Translations under genes and position numbers: made by a program
Shown here: piece by piece, positions 12,249 to 26,631 of the stretch
How positions within the stretch are numbered: position 1 is the stretch's first letter
Layout of the letters: the number at the start of each line of letters is the position of its first letter
The notes under the pieces: model-generated
Told to the model about the DNA's origin: nothing
Seen by the model: only the letters and a program-made list of their open reading frames with translations
The model's database searches: none
Assembly: GCF_000195975.1 (NCBI RefSeq)
Contig: NC_005070.1
Span: 1,500,001-1,532,000 of the forward strand
DNA: 32,000 bases
Direction of reading: 5' to 3'
From: Parasynechococcus marenigrum WH 8102
GTDB taxonomy: Bacteria; Cyanobacteriota; Cyanobacteriia; PCC-6307; Cyanobiaceae

Positions 12249-12270
12249 CAAAGCTTTAATGCTGATCACC

Positions 12271-12654
12271 ATGGCAAGGACTAGCGCGAAAGAACGTTTA
12301 GCCCGTAGGGAACATGCACTGGCGTTGCTTGCTGATGGGAACAGCTTCAGAACGGTTGCGGCGCTTGTGTCGGGAAAGTACGGGGTTTCTGAAAGAACTG
12401 CTCAACGGGACTTGACTTGGGCGAGAAACAGACTGGTAGGGGAACTGAGTTCGACGGAAGTCAAAGAGCTGTTGGCATGGTTCTGCCATAGAACTCAGAC
12501 CATCGTTCAGAAAGCCGAGAAAGCAGGTGCTTACGGTGCTGCTGTTGCTGGCATGAACCTGATTTACCAAGCGGTGCTGTCACGCGAGCTGGACAGTATT
12601 CACAGCAACCGGCATCGGGGCTATGGCAACCGACACGGGAATTACAAGGGTTAA
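12271..12654 (+). CDS. HTH DNA-binding protein (copy A of a near-identical inverted pair)
   Basis: By homology with 20810..21193 the start is ATG 12271 (MARTSAKERL), not 12259. HTH-like segment: NSFRTVAALVSGKYGVSERTAQRDL. It starts 22 nt after the stop of the third large gene. Confidence 0.7.
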   Translation: MARTSAKERLARREHALALLADGNSFRTVAALVSGKYGVSERTAQRDLTWARNRLVGELSSTEVKELLAWFCHRTQTIVQKAEKAGAYGAAVAGMNLIYQAVLSRELDSIHSNRHRGYGNRHGNYKG

Positions 12655-12887
12655 GGCCGAGTTGCGCAGTTTGCTGCTCACTTCCGTGGTCGCTTTACGC
12701 ACCATGGCTCCCGAAGGTGAGATGCCAATCTGTGTGGCTTATTCCAGATAGCCCATATGGATTACAAGGATTTTTGCCTCACCTGGCTGGTTACGTTGGC
12801 GGCCATCAACACAGTTCTGAATGTGCGCGCTCAACGAAGGCGCTGAGCAGCTTTGGCGTCGTTGCCAGCTTTTACGGAATTGCCTGC

Positions 12888-12989
12888 TCACCGCCTAATA
12901 GGCCGTCGGAGCAGATTGCGGTGGTTCAGGACGCAGGCTGTAATAGCTCCAACGCCAAAGGCGATTACCAAAGTGAGAAAGTGGGTCAC
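12888..12989 (-). CDS. 33-aa hydrophobic peptide (hypothetical)
   Basis: GTG start. (M)THFLTLVIAFGVGAITACVLNHRNLLRRPIRR*. It lies directly downstream of 12993..13142 on the same strand. Confidence 0.25.
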   Translation of the reverse strand: MTHFLTLVIAFGVGAITACVLNHRNLLRRPIRR

Positions 12990-12992
12990 GAC

Positions 12993-13142
12993 CTATTTGC
13001 GGTTGAAGAGCTGCAGAGCCGCATAGATGATCACGGCAAGGATGATGTAGTTGAGCAAAGCCCTGAGGATCGTTAGGCTGAGAAAAATGACGAGAACCGA
13101 GATGGCAGCTCGTTTGACGATGGCCTTAGAGCCATCAGTCAT
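12993..13142 (-). CDS. 49-aa membrane peptide (hypothetical)
   Basis: MTDGSKAIVKRAAISVLVIFLSLTILRALLNYIILAVIIYAALQLFNRK*. Two hydrophobic spans. More plausible than the overlapping + ORF 12717..13076. Confidence 0.35.
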   Translation of the reverse strand: MTDGSKAIVKRAAISVLVIFLSLTILRALLNYIILAVIIYAALQLFNRK

Positions 13143-13213
13143 GAAGCGCCAACGGGGAATCAGAGCCACTACAACGCTGAATATATTTGTCAGTTCTAGA
13201 GCAGTACCAGGGT

Positions 13214-13237
13214 GACCTGCTCCCAGTTCTGCTCACC
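13214..13237 (-). repeat. two tandem 12-mers GGTGAGCAGAAC / TGGGAGCAGGTC (same motif as 15325-15360, opposite orientation)
   Basis: The reverse complement of cctgctcccagttctgctcacc matches the GTGAGCAGAA 12-mers next to integrase 1. Confidence 0.4.
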
Positions 13238-13530
13238 TCCTCACGAACCAAGGAAACTCCTGAAGTGCTGGTGGTTGATCTCAGTGATTGACCACCTGTT
13301 CACATTGCAGGGAGTCACTTAGCCTGTAGTCACTCCTTGGCAGGGTGTGACCTTGGGCCGTGATTCGGTTCGAGGTCATTTTTCTTGGGCAAATTTATGG
13401 TTGCGCTGCTGCGCGATGTGGGCACGCCTGGACCAGATGTGGACACGGCGGGAGTGGTCTGTTGACTGTCGCCACGCAATACAGAGGAATGCGTAATGAA
13501 GGCGCTCGCTAATACCTTGGAGTTCGTAAT

Positions 13531-13779
13531 TCATCTGACCTCCGCAAGCTCTCTACGCACGGAGTCGATGCCGATCATCAACTTGCCGCGCTCGTGGAAT
13601 TTCTGACGGCAGGTGGTGATGTTCCAGCTGATTGAGCTGGCATCAGTTGGTCCGAAGCACCAATCCTGACCAGCGATCAGAAAGCCACCGTTACGGTCGC
13701 GATAACGCTTCAGCGTGCGGGCGCTGTAGCCCAAGGCTGTTGTTGCTGCCGGTGTTGGCAGCCATTCATGTTCAGGCAC
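13531..13779 (-). CDS. Xis/AlpA-like HTH protein (putative excisionase or regulator)
   Basis: 82 aa. EWLPTPAATTALGYSARTLKRYRDRNGGFLIAGQDW is paralogous to 17778..18014 (EWFKTSEAARLCGVSSYWLKENRDISGGFLVIDKHW). It lies downstream of integrase 1 on the same strand. Confidence 0.6.
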   Translation of the reverse strand: MPEHEWLPTPAATTALGYSARTLKRYRDRNGGFLIAGQDWCFGPTDASSISWNITTCRQKFHERGKLMIGIDSVRRELAEVR

Positions 13780-13970
13780 AAGAAGATCAGCGATTTTGTT
13801 CTCTGCTGATCTCTTGCGGTTTTTAAGGAAGTTACTAGCGGACCCCTGTCAAATCCCTTTTGCGCAGTGAAAAGAGTGAACCTTCAATCCAGTAATTAAG
13901 GCAAGGAACAACGTAATGTTGCTACTCGCACTGGGACAAGAGATGAAGCAAAATTGCTCCTAAACAACTT

Positions 13971-15110
13971 CTAGGCGGCTTCCGGGTGTAGGTCAAGGGG
14001 TGACAAGGTATCCCCCTCCAAAGTTGTCCTACCTGCTCCAGTAATCCGTTCGACAGCCTCAATCAAGCCAGCCTCATCAATCCACTGTCCATAACTGGCG
14101 TGATGCTCCTGTGGAGTGTGCCCGAGCAGCGCAGCAGCATCCCGAATCGACAACGGGCGGTCATATGACTTGTGCATCCGATAAGCACAGCCGTGCCCCA
14201 GGCTGTATGGCGTCAACCCTGAGCGGGTTGCTTCCAGGCCCTGCCAAAACCTGAAGCGTTGGAGCTGCTGCCGAATCTCATCACCAACAGGCTTGAAGCC
14301 TTTCTCCTCAGCCTCGTTGATGCGGTTCAAAACGGTCTGAGGGAAGCGAATCGTGCCAGTGCGCCACAGCATCACCAGACGCTCTCCTTCACCTTCTCTG
14401 CCTGGCACGTCGAAGGGCAACACCAACCTGTTCTTCTGTTTCTTGCCTCTAGTGGCTTTGTTCCGCTTGCCACCGGGTCGGACTTTCAAATGCCCGTCCT
14501 CCCAAATCAGCTGACTGACTTCAAGGGGGCGCAGACCGTAGATGCCAATAATCCCCACCAGCAACATCAGGCTGGTCCTGTCGGCATCCCTAAGCGCGTC
14601 GAGCAGATTGCCCAGATCGTTGGGCATCACAGGTGGCGTCAACTTGTCCTCAGTGGGTCTGTCGTCAGTACCGATCAACTCCCGCAGGTCATCTGTTTCC
14701 AGAGGCTTCCAACGGCTGTCGTAACCAAATTCCTTGATCGCGTGCCGCAGCAAGCCGCGAACGTTGTTCATCTGTGTGATGCGCCCTGATTTTCCTGGTG
14801 GGCAGTTCTTGAAATGCTGCCGAGCGAAGGAGCGCATCAGGTCAGCGCCACTTTGGGGACGTGGCTTCTTCGCCAAGGTTTGCTTCACCCGTTCCATGTG
14901 ACGGGTGAGGTCCTTCATCGTTGTTGAGCGGCTGTTCTGCCGCCTTCTCTCGATGAAGTCATAGATGACGGCCTGCCAGCCGCTGTCTTCGTCATCCACC
15001 GACTTGCTGACCGTGGGAGTCGCACCGTGCTGCTTCTGTAGCAGCTGAAACGCCTTTGCGAGGGACTCCTCCCCCTTCTCCATACGCTCCCTGATCTGGC
15101 AAACCACCAA
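13971..15110 (-). CDS. int: tyrosine recombinase/integrase paralogue 1 (catalytic Arg II replaced by Gly; possibly inactive)
   Basis: Box I is GLRPLEVSQL. Box II is PYSLGHGCAYR...LLGHT...HHASYGQW, versus PYSLRHGFAWR...LMGHT...HHRHYGAW in integrase 2. The start is ambiguous (TTG 15110, GTG 15107 or ATG 15083). Confidence 0.8.
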   Translation of the reverse strand: MVVCQIRERMEKGEESLAKAFQLLQKQHGATPTVSKSVDDEDSGWQAVIYDFIERRRQNSRSTTMKDLTRHMERVKQTLAKKPRPQSGADLMRSFARQHFKNCPPGKSGRITQMNNVRGLLRHAIKEFGYDSRWKPLETDDLRELIGTDDRPTEDKLTPPVMPNDLGNLLDALRDADRTSLMLLVGIIGIYGLRPLEVSQLIWEDGHLKVRPGGKRNKATRGKKQKNRLVLPFDVPGREGEGERLVMLWRTGTIRFPQTVLNRINEAEEKGFKPVGDEIRQQLQRFRFWQGLEATRSGLTPYSLGHGCAYRMHKSYDRPLSIRDAAALLGHTPQEHHASYGQWIDEAGLIEAVERITGAGRTTLEGDTLSPLDLHPEAA

Positions 15111-15324
15111 GAAGATGTCGCCACTGTGAGCAGGGTTCCAGGGGATCCCTAGCTGAACCGTTTGGCGTGGATTCTTGTGTTGCTTACCGGCAGCTATCCG
15201 GCGGGTTTAACGCACGCCTCCATGGCGCTCATCGATGCCCCAACCGGGGCCACAACGGTGTTTGATCTGGCGGCGTAGTTCCTTCAAACCACTTGTGCTC
15301 AGCCATGGGGAGCAGATTTTTCCC

Positions 15325-15360
15325 GGTGAGCAGAATTGTGAGCAGAAATGGGCAGACACG
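15325..15360 (+). repeat. three tandem 12-mers GGTGAGCAGAAT / TGTGAGCAGAAA / TGGGCAGACACG
   Basis: 12-nt periodicity read directly. Extra GAGCAG copies lie at 15125, 15309 and 15383. The array sits between integrase 1 and the tRNA fragment. Confidence 0.5.
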
Positions 15361-15397
15361 GGAGTACCCAGGTAGGACACGGGGAGCAGAAGGGCAC

Positions 15398-15420
15398 AAA
15401 AAAAGCGGTCTGATAACCGC
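15398..15420 (-). terminator. intrinsic terminator belonging to the displaced tRNA-Ala 3' fragment
   Basis: On the minus strand: GCGGT - 6-nt loop - ACCGC followed by T7, 33 nt beyond the tRNA fragment's 3' end. Same design and spacing as 24789..24813. Confidence 0.55.
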
Positions 15421-15453
15421 CAAGAAACCTGTCTAGGACAGTGTTTTGAAGAA

Positions 15454-15499
15454 TGGAGCCAAGGAGACTCGAACTCCTGACCCCCTGCATGCCATGCAG
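15454..15499 (-). repeat. 46-nt copy of the tRNA-Ala(GGC) 3' part (distal att repeat)
   Basis: tggagccaaggagactcgaactcctgaccccctgcatgccatgcag is identical to 24848-24893. Similarity ends exactly where the 5' part of the tRNA should continue. Confidence 0.9.
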
Positions 15500-15581
15500 T
15501 ACGTTGCTCGCTAAATAACAACGGTCAAATCGCCAGAAATACTAGGCCAGAACCCAGTTCACATCTGGATTCAGGCGAAGG

Positions 15582-15648
15582 TCGGCGCACAAGACTTATG
15601 GGTTCTTGTTGCTTCTTGGAGCGTTTTGGCGCACAATTTGGCGCACAA
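15582..15648 (+). promoter_or_regulatory. three copies of the TTTGGCGCACAA motif (1 + tandem pair); candidate arm-type integrase sites or iterons
   Basis: tcggcgcacaag at 15582. Exact tandem tttggcgcacaa tttggcgcacaa at 15625-15648. A mirror triplet lies at 24709-24762 in the same orientation. Confidence 0.5.
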
Positions 15649-16928
15649 GCCCTGACCACCTGCATCTCTTGGCCAAAGTCATCTGGTCCGACAACTTGCG
15701 GCAGGTGCTCAAGCGTGAGCACGGCAAAGGTTGGTCAGTCAGAGACCACCGTGGCCGGGTACAGCTGACGCGGATTTTTGAAGACCGTTCACGCAGTGCC
15801 GTTTACCTGCCATTGACTTGGACAGCCGATAACGCCACATCGATCCTCAACACGGTTGCTGCAATTCACGACCTGATGGATTCGCGCAAAGTCAGCCTGA
15901 AAGAAGCTGCCAGGTTGAACACTCAGGCATTGGCAGAGCCAGCCAAAAGCGCCAAGACGGTGGCTGACAAAGGTTGGGATGCAGTTGCTGCCGACTTCCT
16001 CAAGAGCCGTGGTGACAGGCGCAGCAGCACTCTCAGAGACCTCAAGCTGCGGGTTGAACGTGCTGTTGCAGTCATCAACCAGAAGCCCAAACCACGCGAC
16101 GGTATGAGCGTGTTGGAGGCATACGCCGCCGCCTACTTCAAGGAAATGGCACCCGGTGGTCAGGGGCGTAAACGAAATCTGAACGACGTCGTGGCATTCC
16201 TCCAATTCGCTGTTGATCGTTGCGGTGCACCAGACCGTTTCCTGCCACCACCAAAAGACCGCATCAATGAATTGATCGGCACCAGCCCAACATCAACAAC
16301 GGAACGACTGACACCACCAATCAAGGCAGACCAGTTCACTGCATTGTTGGATGCACTGGAAGCTGACGGCCGGCATGACCTCAAGCTGGCAGTGGCGTTG
16401 GTTGGCTATCTCGGGTTGCGGCCTGCAGAGCTGGCAGTCCTGCGTGTTGGTGATGACGAAAAGGCAAGGGTCGGCAGCATCAAGCGCAACATCCAAACGA
16501 TGCAGCAGGCAGACAAGCCGCCACGGTTGGTGATGCCACTTGAGATTGACGGCAGAAACAACGAAGGTGCCCGGGCCATAGCACAGTTCGCTAGTGGACT
16601 GGTGAAGTTGCCGAAAGCACTACGAAAACAGATTGATTTAGTTGAGGAGAAAGGACGTTTTCAAGACGTTGGTGCTGAATTTGCCCAGCAACTTTCACGC
16701 TGCAAGCATTGGCAAGCCATGTTCAAAGCAGACCCGCGCATCACCCCGTACAGCTTGCGCCATGGATTTGCTTGGCGGGCAACAGTGGGCCAAAACAAGA
16801 TTCCGGTAAGAACTACTGCCGCATTGATGGGGCATACAATGCAAGTGCACCACAGGCATTATGGCGCTTGGGTTGACGAAGCAGCCATTGAAGAAGCAGT
16901 TGGCATGCACAACGCTGTCGTCGCTTGA
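15606..16928 (+). CDS. int: tyrosine recombinase/integrase paralogue 2 (catalytic residues intact)
   Basis: GLRPAELAVL (Arg I), YSLRHGFAWR (Arg II), LMGHT, HHRHYGAW (Tyr). The true start is probably downstream of the 12-mer repeats, for example GTG 15705 (VLKREHGKGW). Confidence 0.85.
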   Translation: MLLLGAFWRTIWRTSPDHLHLLAKVIWSDNLRQVLKREHGKGWSVRDHRGRVQLTRIFEDRSRSAVYLPLTWTADNATSILNTVAAIHDLMDSRKVSLKEAARLNTQALAEPAKSAKTVADKGWDAVAADFLKSRGDRRSSTLRDLKLRVERAVAVINQKPKPRDGMSVLEAYAAAYFKEMAPGGQGRKRNLNDVVAFLQFAVDRCGAPDRFLPPPKDRINELIGTSPTSTTERLTPPIKADQFTALLDALEADGRHDLKLAVALVGYLGLRPAELAVLRVGDDEKARVGSIKRNIQTMQQADKPPRLVMPLEIDGRNNEGARAIAQFASGLVKLPKALRKQIDLVEEKGRFQDVGAEFAQQLSRCKHWQAMFKADPRITPYSLRHGFAWRATVGQNKIPVRTTAALMGHTMQVHHRHYGAWVDEAAIEEAVGMHNAVVA

Positions 16929-16962
16929 ACTGCGTTTACAAGATTGCCAACTACTTTTCTCG

Positions 16963-17364
16963 TCAAGTCTTTTGATTTGGTTCTGACGCTTTTGATTTGT
17001 CTTCAGGCGGCTTTTTGCCTGGTGTCGAAGCTTTTTCGCTAACTACGGTTGGCTGTTCACTTGGAGATGCATCTTCTTTGGTAGAGCCTGGGGGATTATT
17101 GCTTATTTCTGAATCTTCGATCTTTGTTGTAGATATTTTTTCTTCGGATGCAGGTGGTTCTTTTTTAACCTCAGTTGCGGGTTTTTCTTTTTTAACCTCA
17201 GTTGCAGGTGTTTCTTTCTTAACTACTGGCTTTTTCTTGGGTTTCAGCTTGCTTGTATCTAAAGACTTTTCGCCAAACGACTTAAATCCTAAAAAGATTA
17301 GCCCACCCACTACTGGGATAGAAGTAATACCGCCTATCGCAATTTCAAATTCGCTTAAGGCCAT
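16963..17364 (-). CDS. membrane-anchored Lys/Glu/Pro-rich low-complexity protein
   Basis: The likely start is MALSEFEIAIGGITSIPVVGGLIFLGF (a TM span). A KKETPATEVKKEKPATEVKKE tail follows, containing a 27-nt tandem duplication at 17161-17214. AT-rich. Confidence 0.45.
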   Translation of the reverse strand: MALSEFEIAIGGITSIPVVGGLIFLGFKSFGEKSLDTSKLKPKKKPVVKKETPATEVKKEKPATEVKKEPPASEEKISTTKIEDSEISNNPPGSTKEDASPSEQPTVVSEKASTPGKKPPEDKSKASEPNQKT

Positions 17365-17545
17365 GATCCATGTTCGATGTTCCTCAAATTTAGCATTATG
17401 GTTGCAAGTTCCCGCAAGTTTCGAGTATAAACTGAGGACCTCAGAGGTCGCCCCTGTCATTTCAAAGGCAGGGTTCCCCTCCTAGCGACTGCGACACCTA
17501 CATGTGTCTGCGGGGACGGAGCCAAGATCACCCCGATACGACGGA

Positions 17546-17806
17546 ATGGCTCGTAACGCAGACAATCGCAAAGGGAGAGGTCGGCCTGTCCGAATGCCTC
17601 AGAACCTTGCCGTCAAAGATCGGCAAGTGGTTCTGAAGTTGGCGGAACAGATGTCCCGCATCTGCAGCAACGCGACTGCAGAGCAGCTGGCAGAACTGGC
17701 TGCTGACCCTGATATTGCAACTGCTCCGCGTTTCTTCAAAGAAGCCATGAGGTCGTTCGGGACACCGCTCCCGACCGATGCAACACGAATGGTTCAAAAC
17801 GTCTGA
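17546..17806 (+). CDS. hypothetical protein with N-terminal basic GRGRP (AT-hook-like) segment
   Basis: MARNADNRKGRGRPVRMPQ.... It overlaps the next gene by 29 nt. Same strand as the replication module. Confidence 0.4.
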   Translation: MARNADNRKGRGRPVRMPQNLAVKDRQVVLKLAEQMSRICSNATAEQLAELAADPDIATAPRFFKEAMRSFGTPLPTDATRMVQNV

Positions 17807-18014
17807 GGCTGCAAGGCTCTGCGGCGTTTCTAGTTACTGGCTGAAGGAAAACCGCGACATCAGCGGTGGCTTCCTTGTGATCGACAAGCACTGGATTCCT
17901 GGCATCACACCAACGTCATCAATTCGATGGCACGTGCCATTGGTGCTGGAAGCGATGCGATACCACGGCATGAATCGCATCAAAGGCGATCAGATGTTGG
18001 AGGCCGTGCAGTGA
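17778..18014 (+). CDS. Xis/AlpA-like HTH protein (paralogue of 13531..13779)
   Basis: MQHEWFKTSEAARLCGVSSYWLKENRDISGGFLVIDKHW. Its stop TGA overlaps the next GTG start (GTGA). Confidence 0.6.
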   Translation: MQHEWFKTSEAARLCGVSSYWLKENRDISGGFLVIDKHWIPGITPTSSIRWHVPLVLEAMRYHGMNRIKGDQMLEAVQ

Positions 18015-18235
18015 TTAAGCGCGCCACCTTCGATGACAACGGCAAAAAAGTGCCGGTGAAACTCACTGTTCGTGAGCAGATGCGTCATGCAGCAGCAATG
18101 GCTGACGACTGCAGATCAAAGCTGCAATGGCACCTGACTCCTACTGCGCGGGAGATGTACGAAGACTCCCTGCTTCGGCACACGCAGGACTGGATCCGAC
18201 TCAAAAAACAAGCAGACCAACAAGCAGAAAAATGA
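18011..18235 (+). CDS. 74-aa hypothetical protein (translationally coupled)
   Basis: The GTG at 18011 overlaps the preceding stop. Its own stop overlaps the ATG of the primase gene (ATGA at 18232-18235). Confidence 0.45.
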   Translation: MIKRATFDDNGKKVPVKLTVREQMRHAAAMADDCRSKLQWHLTPTAREMYEDSLLRHTQDWIRLKKQADQQAEK

Positions 18236-19374
18236 CCCACAACCCAATGGGTCGCGGGCCACTCCCTGCCAAAGATGTGGTCAATTTAGGCGACCCTCTG
18301 CCTACAAAGCAGTGCGTCACAGCACTGAAACCCACTGCAGTACCTGAAGAAAATCTGCCCGACTGGGCTCAATGTGCGCCAAAGAGTGCGCCGAACAGTG
18401 TTTACAACGCAGGCACTGATGTCACTGATGTCACTGACGGTACGGATGGCACTGGCAAACGGCTCACCATTGATGCAGCTCAAGCCCATTGGCATCTGGA
18501 CCTGCTTGGCAGGGATGAACGTGACGTTCACATCAGAGCCATCCCGCACAAGGGCAAACGCGGTTTCGCCATCAATGGCAACTTCGCCATGGACCTCGAG
18601 CGATTCCAAGATCTGAACAACCAGGGCTACGGCCTGTACCTTCAGCCAAACATCGGCGGCACCTTGAAAGATGAGGTCACGCTGTGCACCTCACTGTTCT
18701 GGGAATACGACGACAGACCACGGTCTTAACAGGTTGAGCTTTGGCAATCAACCGTTGGGTTGCAACCCACGTTCCAGATCGACACGGGTGGAAAGTCGAT
18801 CCACAACTATTTGGTGCTGGATACCCCTATGGCTCCGGGGCCATGGACGCTGTTGATGGAACGTCTGCAGTTGGCAGCGCCTGGCTGCGACAAAAGCTGC
18901 AAAGGCAACAACCGCATGATGCGGATGGCTGGTGCCCACTACATCGACCGTGAAGGTAAATCCCGGGGGCGATCACAGATCATCAACGCTGACGGCCCGC
19001 GTTACTCAGCTGAAGAGCTGGATGCAGTGTTGCCACCGTTGCTGGTGCCATCGAAAACCAACCGCAAGAAGTTGCGGACTGGTTCAGCGTCAGTGCGACA
19101 GATCGCTGAAGCGCTCGATTACATCCCACGTCGCGTTGGTGGCGCTGGCACCTACGCCATGTACCGCGATGTGTTGTGGGGGTTGAAGGCTGCGCTTGCT
19201 GATGCCGGTGCAGCCGAGACCTTGGCCATTCAGCTGATGGAAGCGCACAGTCCCTCAGCTCAATGCGATTGGGATGTTGAGCAGGTAGCTCGGTCTGGTG
19301 GTGAGCAGATCGGTGCAGGAACACTTTTCCACTACGCCAAGCAATACGGATGGAGTCGTCATGCAAAACGCTGA
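18232..19374 (+). pseudogene. AEP-type primase(-polymerase) with PriCT-2-like C-terminus, interrupted by an in-frame TAA at 18727-18729
   Basis: LFWEYDD (AEP motif I-like) ends the first ORF. TGGKSIHNY (motif II-like) and RMMRMAG follow in the same frame after a single TAA. The C-terminus GTLFHYAKQYGW is PriCT-like. Confidence 0.6.
18373..18395 (-). promoter_or_regulatory. tandem pair of the GGCGCAC 12-mer inside the primase gene (inverted relative to the end copies)
   Basis: The reverse complement reads ttcggcgcactc tttggcgcaca. Confidence 0.35.
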
Positions 19375-20664
19375 ACTAAACAAAGTCGTTGATGACGCTG
19401 AAAACGACAACCCAGAACTGAAGACCAAAGACTTCATTGAACGGGCAACAACGCTCAAGGAGAACCTCGACACGGGGTTGGAACGCGTTGATCAGATCGA
19501 TGACCCAGCGTTGCGGTCTGTGGCTCTGATCCAGCTACGGGACGAACTGGGCCTTAATCGCAATGAGTTCATGCGCCTGGTGGAACTGCTGTCCAAATTC
19601 AAAGGGGAGCAGCCGCCAGAAGACTTTGATGAACTCCGCAAGTGGACATCAGAGCGGCGTGAACCGCCTGTTGTGGAAGACCTGCTTGGCTCCAGCTGCC
19701 TGACTGTTTGGGCAGCTGATGGCTCTTCAGGCAAAAGCATGGGTGGTTATGAACTCAGCGAAGCCGTAACCACTGGCGGCAAGTTCGCTGGTCAGTTTCA
19801 AGCGCAGGTTGGCGATGTGGTGTTCGTCCAAGAAGACGAGTCACCCAGTGATGCTGAGGTGAAGTGGCGACGTATGGGTTTCAACCCCGACGGCAAACGA
19901 CTGCACATGATGTGGTCGTTCACTCCAATGATGCTTCCGGAGTTAAAAGCCAAGATCCAGCCACCTAAGCAAAGCTGGTGGTGATGGATTCGCTTATCAG
20001 CATTGCTGGCGGAACCATCTCACCAAAGGATGCTGAGTTTGCGCTGCTGCTTTACCGGCTCAACAAGTTGGCGTCGGAATTGGGCGTAGCGATCCTCCTG
20101 ATTCACCACCTCACAAAGGACAGCAACCGCAAAGAGGTCAGCAAAGAAGCCATCTTCGGCAGCGCCTTCATCTACGCCGCTACAGCCGATTGCTGGGGCT
20201 ACTGGCGGTGCGATGAAGACGGCAAACCGCATTTCAAATTGCGGGTGCTGAAGGCTCGTTCCAACACCGTTGATCTGGGCACCACCTACGTCTTCAACGG
20301 CAATGAGGAAGACCACCGCTTGAGCTTCAAAGGCTTTGGTGATCGTGTGGTCAGCCTTGATGAACTGAAGACCAAACGCGACCAGGTGGCAGCCTTGTTG
20401 CATCGCGATGGCAGCCAGAAATGGTCTGGTGCTTGCGTCAGCGACTTCTTCGGTTGGAACGGCAGCCGTTACGCCGAAAACGTGTTGTCCAAACTCTACG
20501 AACAACGTTGTGGCGTTGATCGTGTGGCAATGCCCAGCACTGGTGGCAGGCGGAAATACGCCTACTTCAGCGTTTTGGGTGGAGAAGTGAAAAAGTCCGA
20601 CTTCCCCACAGCTTCTACACCCCCTAAAACCGGGTCAGAAGCCAGTTCGGAACTGGACTTCTAA
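19361..20664 (+). pseudogene. RecA-like (AAA_25/RepA-type) replicative helicase split by a frameshift near 19966-19984
   Basis: Walker A (AADGSSGKS) lies in ORF 19361..19984. Walker B-like VVMDSL and LIHHLTK lie in ORF 19978..20664, one frame away. Joining at ~19969 gives ...IQPPKAKLVVMDSL. Confidence 0.6.
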
Positions 20665-20784
20665 GGATCTTTCACACACTTCTTACTCCTCGTGATACTG
20701 AATGACCTACTGCAACCAATGCAGTTGGTCACTCAATTCAAACCAGCTACCACAGCTGGACTTCTACACATTCTTTCCCACCAA

Positions 20785-20807
20785 TGTGCGCCAATTAGTG
20801 CGCCAGA
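20785..20807 (-). promoter_or_regulatory. tandem pair of the GGCGCAC 12-mer between the helicase and HTH genes
   Basis: The reverse complement reads tctggcgcacta attggcgcaca. It lies 3 nt from the stop of 20810..21193. Confidence 0.35.
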
Positions 20808-20809
20808 TG

Positions 20810-21193
20810 TCAGCCCTTGTAATTCCCGTGTCGGTTGCCGTATCCCCGATGCCGATTGCTGTGAATACTGTCCAGCTCGCGTGACAGCACCGCTTGGTAA
20901 ATCAGGTTCATGCCAGCAACAGCGGCACCGTATGCACCTGCCTTCTCGGCTTTCTGAACGATGGTCTGAGTTCTATGGCAGAACCATGCCAGCAGCTCTT
21001 TGACTTCCGTCGAACTCAGTTCCCCTACCAGTCTGTTTCTCGCCCAAGTCAAGTCCCGTTGGGCAGTCCTCTCAGATACCCCGTACTTTCCCGACACAAG
21101 CGCCGCAACTGTTCTGAAGCTGTTTCCATCAGCAAGCAACGCCAACGCATGTTCCCTACGGGCTAAGCGTTCTTTAGCGGTAGTCCTTGCCAT
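20810..21193 (-). CDS. HTH DNA-binding protein (copy B, inverted relative to 12271..12654)
   Basis: 127 aa. It differs from copy A at 20 nt: 18 synonymous, 1 Ser/Thr change, and the stop codon (TAA versus TGA). Confidence 0.75.
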   Translation of the reverse strand: MARTTAKERLARREHALALLADGNSFRTVAALVSGKYGVSERTAQRDLTWARNRLVGELSSTEVKELLAWFCHRTQTIVQKAEKAGAYGAAVAGMNLIYQAVLSRELDSIHSNRHRGYGNRHGNYKG

Positions 21194-21209
21194 AGCTCAA
21201 TAAAAGTAA

Positions 21210-21797
21210 TCAACGAAGTCCTTCACAGGCTTCACCATCATTATCGCTATCTAGATAGACGTGACCCTCTTGAAGAAGTAATTGCGCTTTATCCCACGAA
21301 GAGATTTCGCTACAACGAAGCCTTGCATTGGTCCCCCTCCTATAAATCCAAGGCCTCGTAATGCCTTGCTTACCTTCTGACCAGATACCTTGTTTGAGAT
21401 CTCTCGCTTGACTTTCCAGGAGAAGAAGATTTGGACCATCACAATCTGAAAGATATCTTGTGTACACAAACACAAGCCCTTTACGCACTAGTTCTCCAGC
21501 TACATCAACTCCCCCTGGAGTAGAGACATGTGCAACTGTGCGGCCATATCGATCTTTTTTGATGGGATAGATTGTAATGGCTGAGTCTGCAGGTATCAAT
21601 CCGCGAAATGCATTCATAGCTAGTCTTCCGTATGGATATTGTCCAATTTCTGGGGCATTAACGCATGCCAGCCTTATTTGTTGCGGGATACCATTTAGCC
21701 TTACGATAAGACTGTCTCCATCAACCACCCTGATGACTTCAGAGGCGGTGAGTGGTTGCGGAGTAAAAACAAGCAGACCTAAAACTAACTTTGACAT
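21210..21797 (-). CDS. secreted thermonuclease (SNase-like) with C-terminal Excalibur Ca-binding domain
   Basis: The start is taken at MSKLVLGLLVFTPQPLTA (signal-peptide-like). SNase motifs: DGDSLIVRL...IRLACVNAPE...DRYGRTVAHV. The C-terminus C..ISSWDKAQLLLQEGHVYLDSDNDGEACE fits the Excalibur pattern. AT-rich. Confidence 0.8.
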   Translation of the reverse strand: MSKLVLGLLVFTPQPLTASEVIRVVDGDSLIVRLNGIPQQIRLACVNAPEIGQYPYGRLAMNAFRGLIPADSAITIYPIKKDRYGRTVAHVSTPGGVDVAGELVRKGLVFVYTRYLSDCDGPNLLLLESQARDLKQGIWSEGKQGITRPWIYRRGTNARLRCSEISSWDKAQLLLQEGHVYLDSDNDGEACEGLR

Positions 21798-21866
21798 CCC
21801 AATAGCAAGCGACTCCAACACATGTCCCCTACGGGCAAAGCATTCTTTCGCGGTGGTGCGTGCCAT
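21798..21866 (-). pseudogene. 5' remnant (23 codons) of an HTH-gene copy fused in frame to the nuclease ORF
   Basis: MARTTAKECFARRGHVLESLAIG is encoded by atggcacgcaccaccgcgaaagaatgctttgcccgtagggg.... This is homologous but not identical to the first ~70 nt of 20810..21193. Confidence 0.6.
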
Positions 21867-22029
21867 CAGAAGTCAGCCAAAGAAGTCATGAGTTTGCGAG
21901 CCTTACCTATTTGCTCTTCTGAAAGACGGAAGTATTCAATTTATTCTCCAATGTTTTGACAACCACTGTCTAGAGGATCAAAGCGCCTTCGAATGACCGG
22001 AGAATGATGGTCAATTCAGAACATTTTAA

Positions 22030-22743
22030 TCACCCTATTGCTAGATCTACTGCCCTTGAAAGAGTCAATCCAAATACGTCAAGCACTACGAATCCATTTA
22101 AAAGTCGTACTATTTTTGAAGTAGAAGTTTTGCATGAATCCCCAGAGTAGTCGAAGCAAGCCTCTGCTGCGAAGAAAAAATATTCAAGAGCCCCTAGCCC
22201 GTCCATTCCTGCAATTGCCGGTGACAGATTTCTTTCAGATCGTCCATGGTTCATTCGCCAATACCACCACGTAAAACAAATCAAGATTATGGGAATAAAA
22301 AGCAAAAGCTCAATAATTAAAAGCACTGGGCTTTTGATAGGAGCCACAAGAAGCAGATTCATTATAACAAGTTCAACGATCCAGCAGGCTGAAAGGAAGA
22401 TAGCCAGTAGGTCAATCGATCTTCGCGCTTTTTTGCCCGATAGTCTCAGTACTATCAGAATAAATGTATACGTAAAAAATCCAGCTCCTATTGGCTGAAC
22501 ATGATTAGTGAGTGCATCCAAAAACGAATGAGATATCTCAAGAAAATTCTTAACCGCACCTTCTTCGACAGCCTCAAGGTCTAAGTTTCTATCAAATTGC
22601 TCAGTAAAAATAAAAGTAATAAGGAGTACGTAAATTTCCCCAGGGCTTTTGATTCGATCAATAAATGGCATTGTACTACCAGCAAGTTTTAAATATTTAA
22701 GCAAAAAAGCCCGGGGCTTCCAACCCCCCGGGCTAGTACTCAT
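22030..22743 (-). CDS. multi-pass membrane protein (unknown function)
   Basis: 237-aa AT-rich ORF with about 5 hydrophobic spans. The start may be M25 (MPFIDRI). The segment EYFFFAAEACFDYSGDS loosely recalls a degenerate pore loop, which is speculative. Confidence 0.5.
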   Translation of the reverse strand: MSTSPGGWKPRAFLLKYLKLAGSTMPFIDRIKSPGEIYVLLITFIFTEQFDRNLDLEAVEEGAVKNFLEISHSFLDALTNHVQPIGAGFFTYTFILIVLRLSGKKARRSIDLLAIFLSACWIVELVIMNLLLVAPIKSPVLLIIELLLFIPIILICFTWWYWRMNHGRSERNLSPAIAGMDGLGALEYFFFAAEACFDYSGDSCKTSTSKIVRLLNGFVVLDVFGLTLSRAVDLAIG

Positions 22744-22853
22744 CGAAAGCAGGGCGCTGTCACGATTAGGCGCGCGAATAAGTCATTGTTAGGCTGAGGT
22801 ATTCCCGTGGCGATAGCTGGCTGATCCAGCTTCTTGCCTGAGCGGACCTTGCC

Positions 22854-22895
22854 ATGATGTTCAGCAACGATTTATTGGGTCATCTGCATCGCTGA
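22854..22895 (+). CDS. 13-aa mini-ORF (leader-like), paralogue of 6239..6280
   Basis: MMFSNDLLGHLHR*. The stop lies 1 nt upstream of the next ATG. Confidence 0.25.
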   Translation: MMFSNDLLGHLHR

Positions 22896-22896
22896 G

Positions 22897-22989
22897 ATGG
22901 CACGCGTTTTTCGTGACCAGTGGTTGTCAATAGCGATTGGAGGAGCATCACTAGTGACGTTGGTGTGGCTTGAGGCGTTTGTCTGGTGA
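22897..22989 (+). CDS. 30-aa hydrophobic peptide, paralogue of 6145..6237
   Basis: MARVFRDQWLSIAIGGASLVTLVWLEAFVW*. Frame and length are conserved in the inverted duplicate. Confidence 0.4.
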   Translation: MARVFRDQWLSIAIGGASLVTLVWLEAFVW

Positions 22990-23096
22990 TGACTGTCGTT
23001 ACATAGCTTCATAGTCATGTGTACGTTAATGACGCTTCTGAAAGATCCGCAGGCATTGTTTTTAGCTTTTCAGCTATTAATTTTCTGTCATGTCTC

Positions 23097-23267
23097 ATGA
23101 CCCATCCAACTGCTGGCGACAAAGCGATTTGTAAAGCGCAACTACTCCAATTGGCGCGTGAAATTGAAATAGAAACAAACATAAGACGAATGGAAATTGC
23201 TAGAGAGCGTTTCTCTTTAAAGACTGATTCAGTTGTCGTAGAGGCAGGTCATGGCCGGGGGGTTTAA
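23097..23267 (+). CDS. 56-aa hypothetical protein
   Basis: ATG-started part of ORF 23019..23267 (MTHPTAGDKAICKAQLLQLAREIEIE...). AT-rich. Its 3' end runs into the dispersed repeat. Confidence 0.25.
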   Translation: MTHPTAGDKAICKAQLLQLAREIEIETNIRRMEIARERFSLKTDSVVVEAGHGRGV

Positions 23268-23307
23268 GGGCATAAATCGCTGAGACCGACTGCGCTGCAA
23301 TGGATTT
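23255..23307 (-). repeat. dispersed ~53-nt repeat, copy 4
   Basis: Reverse complement: aaatccattgcagcgcagtcggtctcagcgatttatgcccttaaaccccccgg. Confidence 0.7.
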
Positions 23308-23323
23308 ACCCCGGGGCCCCTTG

Positions 23324-23377
23324 CCGGGCGGCTTTAGGGGTATAAATCGCCGAGATCAACTGCAGTGCAATGGATTT
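23324..23377 (-). repeat. dispersed ~53-nt repeat, copy 5 (tandem with copy 4, ~69-nt period)
   Basis: Reverse complement: aaatccattgcactgcagttgatctcggcgatttatacccctaaagccgcccgg. It begins 15 nt after the stop of 23392..23592. Confidence 0.7.
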
Positions 23378-23391
23378 ACCCCCGGCGCCCC

Positions 23392-23592
23392 TCATGGCAA
23401 CCCCGCAGCGATGAAGTGCTCCTCGACCAAGGACAGCTCTGTGTCGTTTAGGTCCTTAGCCATATCAGCGATGACACCAGCAACGATGGTTCTGGTGATG
23501 CGGAACCATTCCTCCCGGCTACAGCTCCGAGGCCATTCCTGAATACCTTCGAGGAGAGGGGTCTGAGCGACGTGATCAAGGATGTTGGTCAT
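23392..23592 (-). CDS. small conserved hypothetical protein, NILD..IADM family, copy 3 (third gene of an operon)
   Basis: MTNILDHVAQTPLLEGIQEWPRSCSREEWFRITRTIVAGVIADM.... 4-nt ATGA overlap with the upstream gene. Confidence 0.6.
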   Translation of the reverse strand: MTNILDHVAQTPLLEGIQEWPRSCSREEWFRITRTIVAGVIADMAKDLNDTELSLVEEHFIAAGLP

Positions 23593-23942
23593 GAGGCCAT
23601 CTCCCGAGCATCAAGCTCACGCTGCAAGCGATCGCGTAGATCAGCAGCAGCGTCACGGTCATCAAGAACACCGCCAACACGTTTCTCAAGCTCTGAGTTG
23701 AGAGTGCCGATCTTGCTGTCTAAATACAGCATGTGCGCTTCGACCTGCTTCTCGTAGCGATGCAGGTGAGACGGCAACCATGTGTGCCAGGTCCAGTCGA
23801 TAAACGACTGCGGCATACCGGAGAAGGTTGGGTCGACTTCTAGAGCTGCATCACGCTCAGCGAGCAGACGATCCATGACACGTCTGGTGTCAGCTGGGCT
23901 GATGTGCAACCAACCAAGACAAGGGTGAGGGCGAGAAAGCAT
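23589..23942 (-). CDS. hypothetical protein (117 aa), middle gene of the operon
   Basis: Start and stop are overlap-coupled to both neighbours. GC-rich coding-like composition. Trp/His-rich centre (FIDWTWHTWLPSHLHRY) and an acidic/Arg coiled tail. Confidence 0.55.
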   Translation of the reverse strand: MLSRPHPCLGWLHISPADTRRVMDRLLAERDAALEVDPTFSGMPQSFIDWTWHTWLPSHLHRYEKQVEAHMLYLDSKIGTLNSELEKRVGGVLDDRDAAADLRDRLQRELDAREMAS

Positions 23943-24352
23943 CAGAAGTACCTCCCGGTCATTGGGTTGATGCCACTGATGAGCTGCTGCTCGCGGACCT
24001 TGGCAGCTCTCTCGTTACTTTCGCGGAGGCGCTCTGTGCGCATCTGCAGGGCCTGCGCTGCCATGGCTCTGGCTTCCTTCTCCTCGTCGATACGGTGCCG
24101 AATACCAGGGTCGATACCGCAGAAGTGAGCTAACTCTGCACAATCTTGTGCAATAAGCGATGTAAGTGTCAGGTTTGACCTGATTTTTGCCATGTCGACC
24201 GGTTGACCGTAACGACGTGCTGGGAGGAGATTCTTGGTGCCATCGATCTTGGCGATTCTGGCTTCAAGCTGACGAGCTTGAGTTTCGACTTGTGATGCAG
24301 ATTGGTACGACGCCTTGATCTGGTCATCGATAGAAAAGTATTCAGCTGACAT
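23942..24352 (-). CDS. hypothetical coiled-coil-like protein (136 aa), first gene of the operon
   Basis: Its TGA shares one nt with the ATG of the next gene (TGATG). No motif recognised. Confidence 0.55.
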   Translation of the reverse strand: MSAEYFSIDDQIKASYQSASQVETQARQLEARIAKIDGTKNLLPARRYGQPVDMAKIRSNLTLTSLIAQDCAELAHFCGIDPGIRHRIDEEKEARAMAAQALQMRTERLRESNERAAKVREQQLISGINPMTGRYF

Positions 24353-24613
24353 GGGTTGCTAGGCGGCGGCTTTGGGGATTTGCTAGTGGGTCGTAGGAAG
24401 GCACATGTGGTGCGTCGTCATCAATTTCAAAGACTGCACGCTGACGTTCAATACTGGCTTCAAGACGAAGACGATTGATGATCAGGTCAGCCTGAATAGG
24501 GAGCTGACGTTAGGCACTGAATAGCGGTATTTATCGGTGTACATAGCTTAGCTCTTTTGAGTAAACTGAAAACAGCCAGTTTTACGGTGGACTGGCTGCT
24601 CAGTGCCGCTAAT

Positions 24614-24645
24614 AGGGACCGCTTCGGTGGTCCTTATTTGATATT
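24614..24645 (+). terminator. hairpin with UUCG tetraloop followed by a U-rich tail (terminator-like; possible 3' end of a small RNA)
   Basis: aGGGACCGC-TTCG-GTGGTCCtt followed by ATTTGATATTT. A second perfect 8-bp hairpin lies at 24573-24598. Confidence 0.35.
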
Positions 24646-24708
24646 TAGCGCCATCATGAAATAACGAATAAAAGGGCGACTCCCCAGTACTGGACAATGT
24701 GCTCCAGT

Positions 24709-24762
24709 TTTTTGGCGCAACTCGACCACTTACGGCCATTTGGCGCACACTTTGGCGCACAA
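24709..24762 (+). promoter_or_regulatory. three copies of the TTTGGCGCACA motif (1 + tandem pair) at the tRNA-proximal end of the element
   Basis: tttggcgcaac at 24711. tttggcgcacac tttggcgcacaa at 24739-24762. Same strand and layout as 15582-15648. Confidence 0.5.
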
Positions 24763-24788
24763 GAAATGACATTTAGCCGTTTTGCACT

Positions 24789-24813
24789 AAAAAAGCGGCC
24801 ACCGTAGACCGCT
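24789..24813 (-). terminator. intrinsic terminator of tRNA-Ala
   Basis: On the minus strand: GCGGTC - 6-nt loop - GGCCGC followed by T6, 34 nt past the tRNA 3' end. Confidence 0.55.
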
Positions 24814-24847
24814 CAAATGCCAGTGCCTGACTGGGTTCTCTTAGAAA

Positions 24848-24920
24848 TGGAGCCAAGGAGACTCGAACTCCTGACCCCCTGCATGCCATGCAGGTGCTCT
24901 ACCAGCTGAGCTATGGCCCC
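24848..24920 (-). tRNA. tRNA-Ala(GGC): tRNA-Ala (anticodon GGC)
   Basis: Manual cloverleaf: acceptor GGGGCCA/TGGCTCC with the G3:U70 Ala identity pair, D arm GCTC/GAGC, anticodon stem CCTGC/GCAGG with loop ATGGCAT, T arm AGGAG-TTCGAGT-CTCCT. 73 nt; CCA not encoded. Confidence 0.9.
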
Positions 24921-24985
24921 ATGAACGCCGGTGATGCCCTCGGGCTCGTGCCGTCGTCGTATCCAAGCTTACACCGAGGCGGCGA

Positions 24986-25609
24986 TCACACCTGACGCCA
25001 CACCGCCACCAACCGGCCCTGCACCTCCACCTGCTCCGCCGGCAGCTCGATCGGGTCGTAGGCAGGGTTGGCTGCTTCGAGCACAACCGCCGCCCCTTTG
25101 CGGTGGAAATGCTTCAGGGTTGTGCCGCTTCCCGCCACCAGGGCACTCACAACGGTGCCGTTGCGCAGGCGCTGCGGATCAGGCACAGGCTCCATCAACA
25201 CCACGTCGCCATCAGCGATGTGAGCATCCACCATCGAATCACCGTTCACCGTGAGGGCAAACAGTCCGCGGGTCTCCAGAACCGGTGCCAGATCAAGGTG
25301 CTCCTGAACGTCATCAAAGGCCGTCACCAGGCCACCTGCAGCCACGGCACCCAGCACGGGAATGCCGGCAGCCGCAGCCATGTCACCCAGCAATTGCAGG
25401 GTGCGGGCCTGTCCTTCCTGCCAGGTGATCCACCCTTTCTGTTGGAGATGCCGCAAGCGGCTCTGGATCGGCGCTGGAGAACGCAGCCCCATCGCCTGCA
25501 TCATCTGACGGATCGACGGGCTGTGCCGATGTGTGCCAATGTACTCCGCCAGCCAGTCGTACAGCTCCTGTTGGGCGGAGGTCAATGGCTCTGGGGATGA
25601 GATGGTCAC
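24986..25609 (-). CDS. lexA: LexA repressor (S24 peptidase)
   Basis: Winged-HTH N-terminus (LTSAQQELYDWLAEYI...SIRQMMQAMGLRS), Ala-Gly cleavage site (VAAGG), catalytic GDSM and a downstream Lys (TLKHF). The start is set at GTG 25609, giving 207 aa; the 256-aa ORF in the track would overrun the putative operator. Confidence 0.85.
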   Translation of the reverse strand: MTISSPEPLTSAQQELYDWLAEYIGTHRHSPSIRQMMQAMGLRSPAPIQSRLRHLQQKGWITWQEGQARTLQLLGDMAAAAGIPVLGAVAAGGLVTAFDDVQEHLDLAPVLETRGLFALTVNGDSMVDAHIADGDVVLMEPVPDPQRLRNGTVVSALVAGSGTTLKHFHRKGAAVVLEAANPAYDPIELPAEQVEVQGRLVAVWRQV

Positions 25610-25627
25610 AAAACAAGGCGCCGAACA

Positions 25628-25639
25628 ATACATTTGTAC
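25628..25639. promoter_or_regulatory. candidate LexA box (imperfect palindrome ATACA-TT-TGTAC)
   Basis: It lies ~20 nt upstream of the lexA GTG and between the divergent genes. It matches the GTAC-centred palindromes reported for cyanobacterial LexA boxes with one mismatch. Confidence 0.4.
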
Positions 25640-26620: not shown

Positions 26621-26631
26621 ACAAAGCGCCT

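Follow-up and report, generated by a model that had tools for sequence, protein, structure and literature searches.

The window analysed here is a stretch of 32,000 nucleotides (nt) from Parasynechococcus marenigrum WH 8102 (contig NC_005070.1, positions 1,500,001 to 1,532,000 of the forward strand), and coordinates refer to the window unless another sequence is named. Positions 15500–24845, adjoining the tRNA-Ala(GGC) gene beside lexA, are very probably a site-specific integrative element of the tycheposon type, as judged from its anatomy and from related loci. It is referred to as element A. Tycheposon-like islands are already known from marine picocyanobacteria, and element A is a good but ordinary case of one. 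What is added here is its exact empty site, the exact lesions in its genes, a head-to-head tandem with a decaying predecessor (element B), a putative hinge at the gene reg together with a probable natural recombinant, and dyads that are specific to individual modules. The hotspot was found in three states: with the older element alone (locus L101), with the older element and the newcomer (the window and the complete genome CP047956.1, also labelled L098), and as a probable recombinant in which the cargo of the newcomer is joined to a module at a tRNA-Val gene (locus L127). These states support, for a host other than Prochlorococcus, the tycheposon model in which elements stack, decay and exchange modules. 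The current picture of such islands is unchanged, the leads for the specialist being the invariant reg as a possible hinge and the presence of two attachment-site polarities within one integrase family.

Element A is bounded by a direct repeat of 48 nt (15452–15499 and 24846–24893), the two copies of which are 100% identical and lie 9394 nt apart from start to start. The first-pass annotation of this DNA, made from the sequence alone, had described a perfect repeat of the 3' part of tRNA-Ala. The repeat is real and perfect, but its length is 48 nt and not 46. The same annotation had given 24920 as the right-hand end of a discrete element; the insertion is indeed discrete, but 24920 is the 5' end of the tRNA gene and the inserted DNA proper is 15500–24845, or 9,346 bp. 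When up to 3 mismatches are allowed, the repeat is present in the window in 2 copies only, two matches to it were found in none of 100 dinucleotide shuffles, and a blastn-short search of the window revealed no third or degenerate copy.

The right-hand copy of the repeat is the 3' 48 nt of a complete tRNA-Ala(GGC) gene (24846..24921, minus strand). ARAGORN places this gene at 24847–24921 on the minus strand, as the sole tRNA gene in the window, and Rfam places it at 24848–24920 with 65.3 bits. Read in the sense of the tRNA, the repeat begins one base into the 5' strand of the anticodon stem, at its second base, and ends 2 nt past the discriminator base. On the plus strand the identity ends at 24893/24894, where the 5' part of the tRNA goes on as GTGCTCTACC..., whereas position 15500 reads TACGTTGC. 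The left-hand copy (15452..15499, minus strand) is a displaced 3' part of tRNA-Ala(GGC), and the two copies form the attachment (att) sites of A. The GC content of A is 0.514, with 0.48 in the cargo and 0.53 in the part carrying the integrase and replication genes, against 0.607 in the flank on the lexA side.

The site without A is seen in L101 (ENA ERZ27286559), which was retrieved by exact-sequence lookup of the 127 amino acid (aa) reg protein. A predicted A-less junction was built by joining window positions 15383–15499 to 24894–24964, and L101 differs from this prediction by 1 mismatch in 188 nt. It matches the window over 12261–13311 at 98.95% and over 13315–15499 at 99.4%, and continues from there into the complete tRNA and the lexA flank (24846–24964). 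The order in L101 is the sequence to the left of 15452, one 48-nt core, the 5' part of the tRNA and the lexA-side flank, without A. Because L101 joins the left flank straight to the complete tRNA and the lexA flank, 15500–24845 is a discrete insertion. An empty site of this kind, with lexA and tRNA-Ala joined directly to the left flank, had been named in the first-pass annotation as the means of checking its proposal. The partial copy at 15452–15499 is the former 3' end of the tRNA beside B, and lies within the complete tRNA in L101. Islands of the anticodon-loop type of sublocation, reportedly distinguished by Williams in 2002, have as their repeat the 3' part of a tRNA from the anticodon stem onwards, with the complete tRNA at one end. 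Element A has both the repeat of the tRNA 3' part and the occupied/empty polymorphism at the repeat boundaries that mark this type.

The integrated structure of A was seen again in several independent assemblies and samples, the samples concerned being estuarine or marine metagenomes, and a Logan contig with an integrase identical to that of A is present in at least 20 runs. Misassembly of the junctions of A is unlikely, because the integrated structure recurs in independent assemblies. The genes of the host flank encode LexA, ornithine carbamoyltransferase, FtsH and an SOS-response-associated peptidase (SRAP). LexA is 92–95% identical to that of Synechococcus genomes and metagenome-assembled genomes (MAGs). 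The order GH116–DUF3122–ribD–ftsH–argF–lexA–tRNA-Ala is common to the window and the complete genomes of WH 8101 and CB0101, and the synteny of lexA and tRNA-Ala(GGC) is kept across Synechococcus, Cyanobium and Prochlorococcus. The identity of LexA and the synteny of the flank with WH 8101 and CB0101 agree with the Synechococcus-like host that had been proposed from the sequence alone.

The integrase gene of A, intA (15606..16928, plus strand), is an intact open reading frame (ORF) of 440 aa starting from TTG, identified through PHROG_1, Pfam and a family alignment; its homologues align from about residue 22–27. It matches PHROG_1 'integrase' with E 4.1e-16 and PHROG_216 with E 7.7e-9. In an alignment of 22 family members R246, K267, H360, H384 and Y393 are invariant and R359 is near-invariant, with Tyr356 in the position where the first His of box II is expected. 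The family profile matches the XerC-like structure 4a8e with E 0.003 over box II, which supports the reading LRH...GH...Y. With a significant integrase profile match and the catalytic residues, intA belongs to the tyrosine recombinases. The protein is full length and 95–96% identical to the copies in L098, L102 and L107. At least 505 proteins of about 430 aa make up the family, among them those of WH 8101, CB0101 and S. lacustris, and its members are found at tRNA-Ala(GGC) beside lexA in many picocyanobacterial genomes. In WH 8101 and CB0101 partial tRNA copies of 45–48 nt form the bounds of the element. The family therefore has tRNA-targeting members, a point on which the earlier proposal had been made to depend. 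Among the fetched loci, every copy at least 94% identical to intA with a contig long enough upstream has the tRNA-Ala core 107–111 nt before the start of the ORF. Together with the empty site of L101, this shows the integrase to be site-specific.

This anatomy suggests a route by which A would have entered the chromosome. The integrase would recombine the 3' part of tRNA-Ala(GGC) on a circular form of the element with the chromosomal tRNA, and the most likely place for the crossover would be the 5' edge of the identity block, where the anticodon stem-loop lies. The complete tRNA would be rebuilt from the copy brought by the element, with the old 48-nt 3' part of the host displaced to the far end, beside intA.

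Within A the integrase is followed by small ORFs that include a probable excisionase, then by a PrimPol and an AAA_25 helicase, which converge on reg, with AT-richer cargo beyond. The integrase is directed inward from the att site, the primase and helicase genes come next (18232–20664), and tRNA-Ala(GGC), which is present with a partial copy, is one of the seven target tRNAs of tycheposons (Hackl et al., bioRxiv 10.1101/2020.12.28.424599). Candidate functional equivalents of the tycheposon hallmark genes for mobility and replication (xis, pri, hel and reg) are the PrimPol, the AAA_25 helicase, a xis-like ORF and the helix-turn-helix (HTH) gene reg; a helicase of the DUF3987/VirE type is present in the intact relative of B, this type being found in the relatives of B only and not in A. 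The tycheposon layout suggested in the first-pass annotation is matched in all of its structural features, while the comparison with P4-like or PICI-like satellites made there is unsupported by the gene content. Its list of the genes between the repeats holds as given, with two reservations. The PriCT-2 match of the primase is sub-threshold (E 0.0068, 17.2 bits against a cutoff of 22), and the label 'Xis-like HTH' is based on weak HTH matches and position.

The tycheposons of Prochlorococcus have, like A, an inward tyrosine integrase at one end, a small replication module, variable cargo, and a tRNA with its partial copy. They differ from A in their host, which here is a Synechococcus, and the cargo of A is without a clear nutrient-uptake function. 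In Prochlorococcus the tRNA is mostly followed directly by the integrase gene (Grebert et al. 2022, PMC8995045), whereas in A it is at the far end from the complete tRNA. Insertions at tRNA-Phe(GAA) in Synechococcus, for which iterative integrations at one tRNA have been proposed, occur in the same genus and resemble A in that a tRNA remnant lies beyond a distal tyrosine recombinase (Grebert et al. 2022, PMC8995045). However, their target lies beside the phycobilisome rod region and that of A is Ala-GGC beside lexA, and A has a primase-helicase module and a demonstrated empty site. The elements of WH 8101 and CB0101, in which the partial tRNA repeats bound about 7.4–8.4 kb, share with A the integrase family (53–55% identity), the target tRNA, and the order of integrase, xis-like ORF and helicase converging on minus-strand genes. 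They differ from A in that the integrase is beside the complete tRNA, in the opposite polarity, and that no PrimPol was called there.

Several points weigh against reading A as an active element of the tycheposon type. The assignment is made by structure, and tycheposons are defined also by an integrase that is usually a tyrosine recombinase of a tycheposon-specific lineage (Hackl et al., bioRxiv 10.1101/2020.12.28.424599). The match of intA to Pfam PF00589 (E 1.4e-4, 22.1 bits) is below the curated cutoff of 27.1. The excisionase label of the 78-aa ORF xis78 is weak, as its matches to MerR/HTH_17 are weak and that to RdfS is non-significant (E 0.51). The orientation of A is opposite to that of most of its relatives at tRNA-Ala. 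No excised circular form was encountered, the exact 77-nt attP junction having 0 matches in the viral contigs of IMG/VR, and a tolerant dyad-core-dyad pattern 0 matches in IMG/VR and 0 in the JGI metagenomes. The polymorphism between occupied and empty sites is the sole sign that suggests activity of A. The sequences compared are metagenome assemblies or MAGs, except for the comparators WH 8101, CB0101 and CP047956.1.

It is unlikely that A is instead a phage satellite like the phage-inducible chromosomal islands (PICIs), with reg as a small-terminase-like protein that redirects the packaging of a helper cyanophage and cargo that rides along. Satellites with terS have been reported among tycheposons as PICI-like forms (Hackl et al., bioRxiv 10.1101/2020.12.28.424599), and PICIs, SaPIs (staphylococcal pathogenicity islands) and P4-like satellites share with A the size range, the site-specific integrase, a module of the primase-helicase type and the integrated lifestyle. 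The fold of reg, an HTH with two long helices, has the small terminases of phages G20c and P74-26 as its top matches in the PDB, and a profile search gave a weak collinear match to 'Pam5 small terminase' (E 0.49), but the terminase matches are all non-significant (E 0.3–0.8 and TM about 0.3 for the folds). Nine members of the reg family match a viral PHROG of unassigned function, with a best E of 2e-6, and the primase is related to a cyanophage enzyme. However, no capsid, portal, large terminase or interference gene was detected in A, and Pfam, PHROGs and NCBIfam revealed no packaging or capsid-hijacking genes (terS, major capsid protein, cos/pac) in it. Capsid-remodelling and helper-sensing genes, a P4-type N-terminal integrase domain and a P4 alpha-type primase, by which satellites of these groups differ from A, were likewise not identified in A. 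A set of 50,697 phage records gave nothing for intA or reg (tblastn) or for related primase-helicase DNA (blastn); the phage matches are of the primase protein to one cyanophage (S-2L), and of the helicase protein, weakly and over part of its length, to 8 non-cyanobacterial phages (of Paenibacillus and Streptococcus). The search of IMG/VR found no close relative of intA, as well as no attP junction of A. A P4-like satellite was rejected, there being no Pfam or PHROG match to the P4 integrase, the alpha primase-helicase or sid/psu/delta, and the primase being an All3500-like PrimPol. An integrative conjugative or mobilisable element was also rejected, as comparison of the candidate A genes with Pfam and PHROGs revealed no relaxase, coupling protein or type IV secretion gene, and assignment as a prophage is unsupported by the family and phage-record searches.

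Two further readings concern the repeat itself. That A, B and the rest of the island are one composite mobile unit, with the internal 48-nt copy as a relic, is very unlikely, although two related integrases stand head to head around the partial tRNA here and in CP047956.1, and near-identical reg genes are found in both halves. In L101, however, B is beside the complete tRNA without A, and modules of the A type are found on contigs of their own in L102, L107 and L108. The integrase of B is a pseudogene, and neither the window nor the adjoining 6.5 kb on the left contains a second, outer att copy. The least probable reading, which we consider hardly credible, is that the repeat is the remnant of a local tRNA duplication, or an assembly artefact, and that the enclosed genes have at no time moved together as one unit. 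In its favour, the data come from metagenomes, a repeat of 48 nt may confuse assemblers that use a short k, and Logan contigs break within the core; yet the same junctions are present in several independent assemblies, one of them with k127 in the contig name. This reading is also contradicted by L101, where the empty site matches exactly at the repeat boundaries, and by the presence at the end of the element of an integrase from a tRNA-Ala-associated family.

As an integrated element of the tycheposon type, the window copy of A has lost its replication genes to one inactivating lesion each. The lesions were mapped by alignment to four relatives of about 90% identity (L098, L102, L103 and L104). 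The AEP PrimPol primase pseudogene (18232..19374, plus strand) has an in-frame TAA in place of GAA at 18727–18729, five codons past WEYDD (the ExDD motif) and before GGKSIHNY (the sxH motif). The AAA_25 helicase pseudogene (RecA-fold, RepA/DnaB-like; 19361..20664, plus strand) has a 1-nt deletion, one A being lost after 19957, in the stretch that separates the Walker A region from the 'VVMDSL' segment. All four relatives have GAA at the primase site and the extra A in the helicase gene, and in all of them both genes are intact. The AAA_25 profile is split over two ORFs in the window (profile positions 16–121 and 148–194), and the intact 434-aa orthologue matches it with 64.8 bits over positions 15–194. 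A gene break at 19361–19374 was considered and rejected, as this is a normal 14-nt overlap of the primase stop and the helicase start. The integrase, the excisionase candidate and both att copies look intact. This copy of A is probably able to excise and reintegrate, but would be unable to replicate alone. The statement of the first-pass annotation that the replication genes are broken is borne out, and the exact lesions date the decay of both A and B.

The intact 355-aa orthologue of the primase (17504–18571 in CP047956.1/L098) matches the AEP domain of the PrimPol of cyanophage S-2L (PDB 6zp9) with E 7.8e-20. Against the S-2L genome (tblastn) it is 35.9% identical over 83% of its length, with E 5e-30. 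The primase is an AEP PrimPol of the All3500-like kind, and the window copy retains WEYDD and GGKSIHNY with the TAA between them. The ExDD and GGKSIH motifs are common to the orthologue and the S-2L PrimPol (PDB 6ZP9; Czernecki et al. 2021, PMC8065100), and the phage enzyme has close relatives in cyanobacteria, in the All3500-like subfamily (Czernecki et al. 2021, PMC8065100). In S-2L, however, the enzyme is fused to a VirE-like helicase domain and is the polymerase of the phage, whereas in elements like A it is encoded on its own, by a 355-aa gene with an AAA_25 helicase gene after it, and in the window it is a pseudogene. Earlier remarks that the S-2L PrimPol is of cyanobacterial origin fit its closeness to the A primase. 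It is plausible that mobile elements like A are a reservoir for the S-2L-type phage primase gene.

To the left of the partial tRNA is B, the remnant of an older related element (12259..15451), recognised by comparison with L101. It contains reg2 (12259–12654, plus strand), o119, a xis-like ORF (13531–13779, minus strand) and the integrase pseudogene int2 (13971–15281, minus strand, with the ORF part at 13971–15110), which is 37% identical to intA over 354 aa. In L101 int2 is intact at 444 aa and a 505-aa DUF3987 helicase is present. Compared with L101, the window int2 has an extra A near codon 9, causing a +1 frameshift, and a change of TTA to TAA at codon 34. Its box II catalytic Arg is changed to Gly (SLRHG to SLGHG). 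The window has 3 nt (13312–13314) where L101 has 2,055 nt with the DUF3987 helicase gene. In CP047956.1, which has both elements, int2 is without the other catalytic Arg (GLRP to GLCP). From the comparison of these loci, B evidently held the tRNA before A, was displaced inward by A, and is now decaying. Tandem elements split by partial tRNAs, and degenerate remnants with fragmented integrases, have been described for tycheposons (Hackl et al., bioRxiv 10.1101/2020.12.28.424599). No third copy of the tRNA fragment that might mark the outer bound of B was found, either in the window or over the 6.5 kb beyond its left end.

The common polarity at this site has the family integrase just downstream of the complete tRNA and in the same direction, as in WH 8101, CB0101 and at least 8 other loci. 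Relative to the partial tRNA, B has this common polarity. Element A is the mirror image: its cargo end adjoins the complete tRNA, and intA diverges from the partial tRNA on the truncated side. In all fetched loci the polarity of A is that of the intA clade (at least 94% identity) and of a second clade at about 37% identity, while the common polarity is that of a clade at 44–55% and of the int2 clade. Integrase pairs standing head to head around a partial tRNA are also found in CP047956.1, in L113 and probably in L122. A head-to-head pair is the outcome when an element of A polarity enters a site held by an element of B polarity. Inversion at the palindromic anticodon stem-loop CCTGCATGGCATGCAGG was rejected as the origin of the orientation of A, as it would join the 5' part of the tRNA to element DNA and make a large palindrome, neither of which is seen. 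Inversion between the two inverted reg copies was also rejected, as its product would be no closer to the canonical arrangement than what is observed. At four fetched Prochlorococcus lexA–tRNA-Ala loci no integrase was found.

The gene reg (20810..21193, minus strand) lies at the boundary between the backbone and cargo modules of A and encodes the 127-aa protein with an HTH and two long helices. Exact copies of the protein are found in 121 indexed blocks, with mosaic surroundings. On the cargo side its neighbours are the SNase gene, an Excalibur-only ORF, a haemolysin-type Ca-binding protein or a 569-aa protein, and on the backbone side an AAA_25 helicase (434 or 494 aa) or a DUF3987 helicase, with differing integrases. 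Between reg and reg2, 126 of the 127 aa are identical, and the nucleotide differences comprise 18 in synonymous codons and 1 in a non-synonymous codon. A third and distant paralogue of the reg family, with about 24% identity, is found at 1520–1906. Clustering at 50% leaves 62 representatives of this small family, and 5 of its members match HTH_23 weakly. An AlphaFold (AF2) model made from a 39-sequence alignment has a pLDDT of 87 and shows an N-terminal three-helix HTH followed by the two long helices. On this model reg is treated as a putative HTH DNA-binding protein, with the terminase-like reading as a minority hypothesis. We infer from its contexts that reg acts as a hinge for homologous recombination between backbone and cargo.

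A probable natural recombinant is seen in L127, which is L002 extended (region 9432–18157). It comes from the same host population, its flanks being 99.85% identical to the window. L127 matches the window over the host flank and the cargo and up to about 20823, within the last codons of reg. Past this breakpoint are a 344-aa AAA_25 helicase, xis-like ORFs and a 422-aa integrase, and the module ends at a complete tRNA-Val(TAC), which is followed by the host genes DUF2227, MazG, DLH and RF-1. No partial tRNA is present in L127. This arrangement points to a recombination of reg with reg, between A and an element at a convergent tRNA-Val, in which the intervening island would have been deleted. 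A chimeric origin of L127 is supported by the dyads described below, which go with the integrase, xis and replication module and not with reg.

The dyad GGCGCAC-N5-GGCGCAC is present in 4 copies in A, one in each arm flanking the core and two inverted around the replication genes. The copy at 15628–15646 (plus strand) is in the integrase-side arm of the attachment region (15500..15683, plus strand), and a dyad is found in the same place in L098, L102 and the L108-type contigs. The inverted copies, on the minus strand, are at the 5' end of the primase gene (18374..18392; kept in L098, L102 and L103) and between the helicase stop and the reg stop (20786..20804; kept in L098, L100, L102, L103, L104 and L006). 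The fourth copy (24742..24760, plus strand) is in the cargo-side arm, 85 nt from the core, and is kept in L002/L127 and L006. The tRNA-Val module of L127 has a different set, TAGAGCA-N5-TAGAGCA, with one copy beside the integrase and two inverted around the helicase, while the A-derived cargo arm of L127 retains the GGCGCAC dyad. Candidate roles of the dyads are as arm sites of the integrase, as operators, or as iterons of an origin.

A wider proposal, which we regard as rather doubtful, is that reg and the module-specific dyads are the organising hub of this family of elements, in one of two versions. Elements that carry cargo may be phage satellites, in which the modelled reg would be a small-terminase-like DNA-recognition protein; a combination of cargo with a PICI-like lifestyle was reportedly never seen (Hackl et al., bioRxiv 10.1101/2020.12.28.424599). 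Alternatively, the 5' end of reg may be a dedicated docking site for the capture of cargo, of which stacked reg-start remnants would be the footprints. If true, either version would account for the identity of reg across more than 100 assemblies amid varying surroundings.

The cargo of A varies among its relatives. Tycheposon cargo has been associated with local adaptation or interference with phages (Hackl et al., bioRxiv 10.1101/2020.12.28.424599). Next to reg in the window is a gene for a 218-aa nuclease with SNase and Excalibur domains (21210..21866, minus strand; Pfam SNase E 1.8e-14, Excalibur E 2.3e-4), which also matches the PADLOC candidate 'SNc+LTD' with E 1.2e-11. The first 63 nt of its ORF (21804–21866; 21 codons) repeat the 5' end of reg with 84% identity, and the true start of the nuclease is likely to be an internal Met before a hydrophobic, signal-like stretch. 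A 237-aa membrane protein (22030..22743, minus strand) has only a faint match to a two-transmembrane (2TM) effector, with E 0.007. Upstream of its gene is a conserved leader of 142 nt (22848..22989, minus strand), the last part of which, ...CATGGCAAG, is the start of reg. The leader is found again, with 83% identity, at 6145–6286 upstream of an RCC1 gene, and more copies are present in L100 and L103–L105. These remnants of the reg start and the leader before cargo genes may be footprints of cargo exchange at the start of reg.

The cargo ends with three coupled genes of 136, 117 (called as 95) and 66 aa (23392..24352, minus strand), for which Pfam, PHROGs, NCBIfam and PADLOC gave no matches. 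Homologues of this operon are found beside tRNA-Ala in L006 and elsewhere in related islands, and two paralogues of the 66-aa gene are present in the window at 562–753 and 3104–3301. Just downstream of the 66-aa gene are two tandem units of 69 nt, 80% identical (23252–23390), which are also found at 1070–1129 and in related islands. The 69-nt repeat and the 142-nt leader were considered as structured RNAs and rejected, as neither has an Rfam family and their folding is not above that of shuffles, except for one leader copy with z = -3.2. As a known defence system the cargo was also rejected, the match of the SNase domain being to the PADLOC candidate only. A role of the cargo in DNA scavenging or defence is speculation.

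Between the integrase and the primase are three overlapping small ORFs on the plus strand (17504..18235): o100 (17504–17806), xis78 (17778–18014) and an ORF of 74/102 aa that extends to 18235. An ORF of the xis78 family follows the integrase in many related loci, and it is plausible that xis78 is the excisionase. Between intA and these ORFs is a Lys/Pro-rich ORF of 165 aa with 27-nt tandem repeats (16963..17460, minus strand), which is a lineage-specific insert. Window positions 16937–17395 have no aligned counterpart in L098, in which the matching blocks on either side are about 106 nt apart. The region has a low GC content and is also found in Logan contigs; judged from these alignments the insertion is small and recent.

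The region to the left of B has a GC content of 0.46 and contains RCC1/PPC repeat proteins with paralogues of reg and of small genes, and looks like accumulated island material. The distant reg paralogue and the paralogues of the 66-aa gene suggest stacked remnants of still older elements. Three large low-GC genes at 3533–12248 encode proteins of 603, 1154 and 714 aa with RCC1 repeats, PPC domains and long Pro-Thr-Asp repeats, and have a common 3' region of about 400 nt that is 86–88% identical. The RCC1/PPC genes look like a recent local expansion, because CP047956.1 has only one such gene. On the other side of A, the hotspot adjoins lexA, and the SRAP gene is 4 kb off (24986–30221); the tycheposon hallmark genes are induced by mitomycin C (Hackl et al., bioRxiv 10.1101/2020.12.28.424599).

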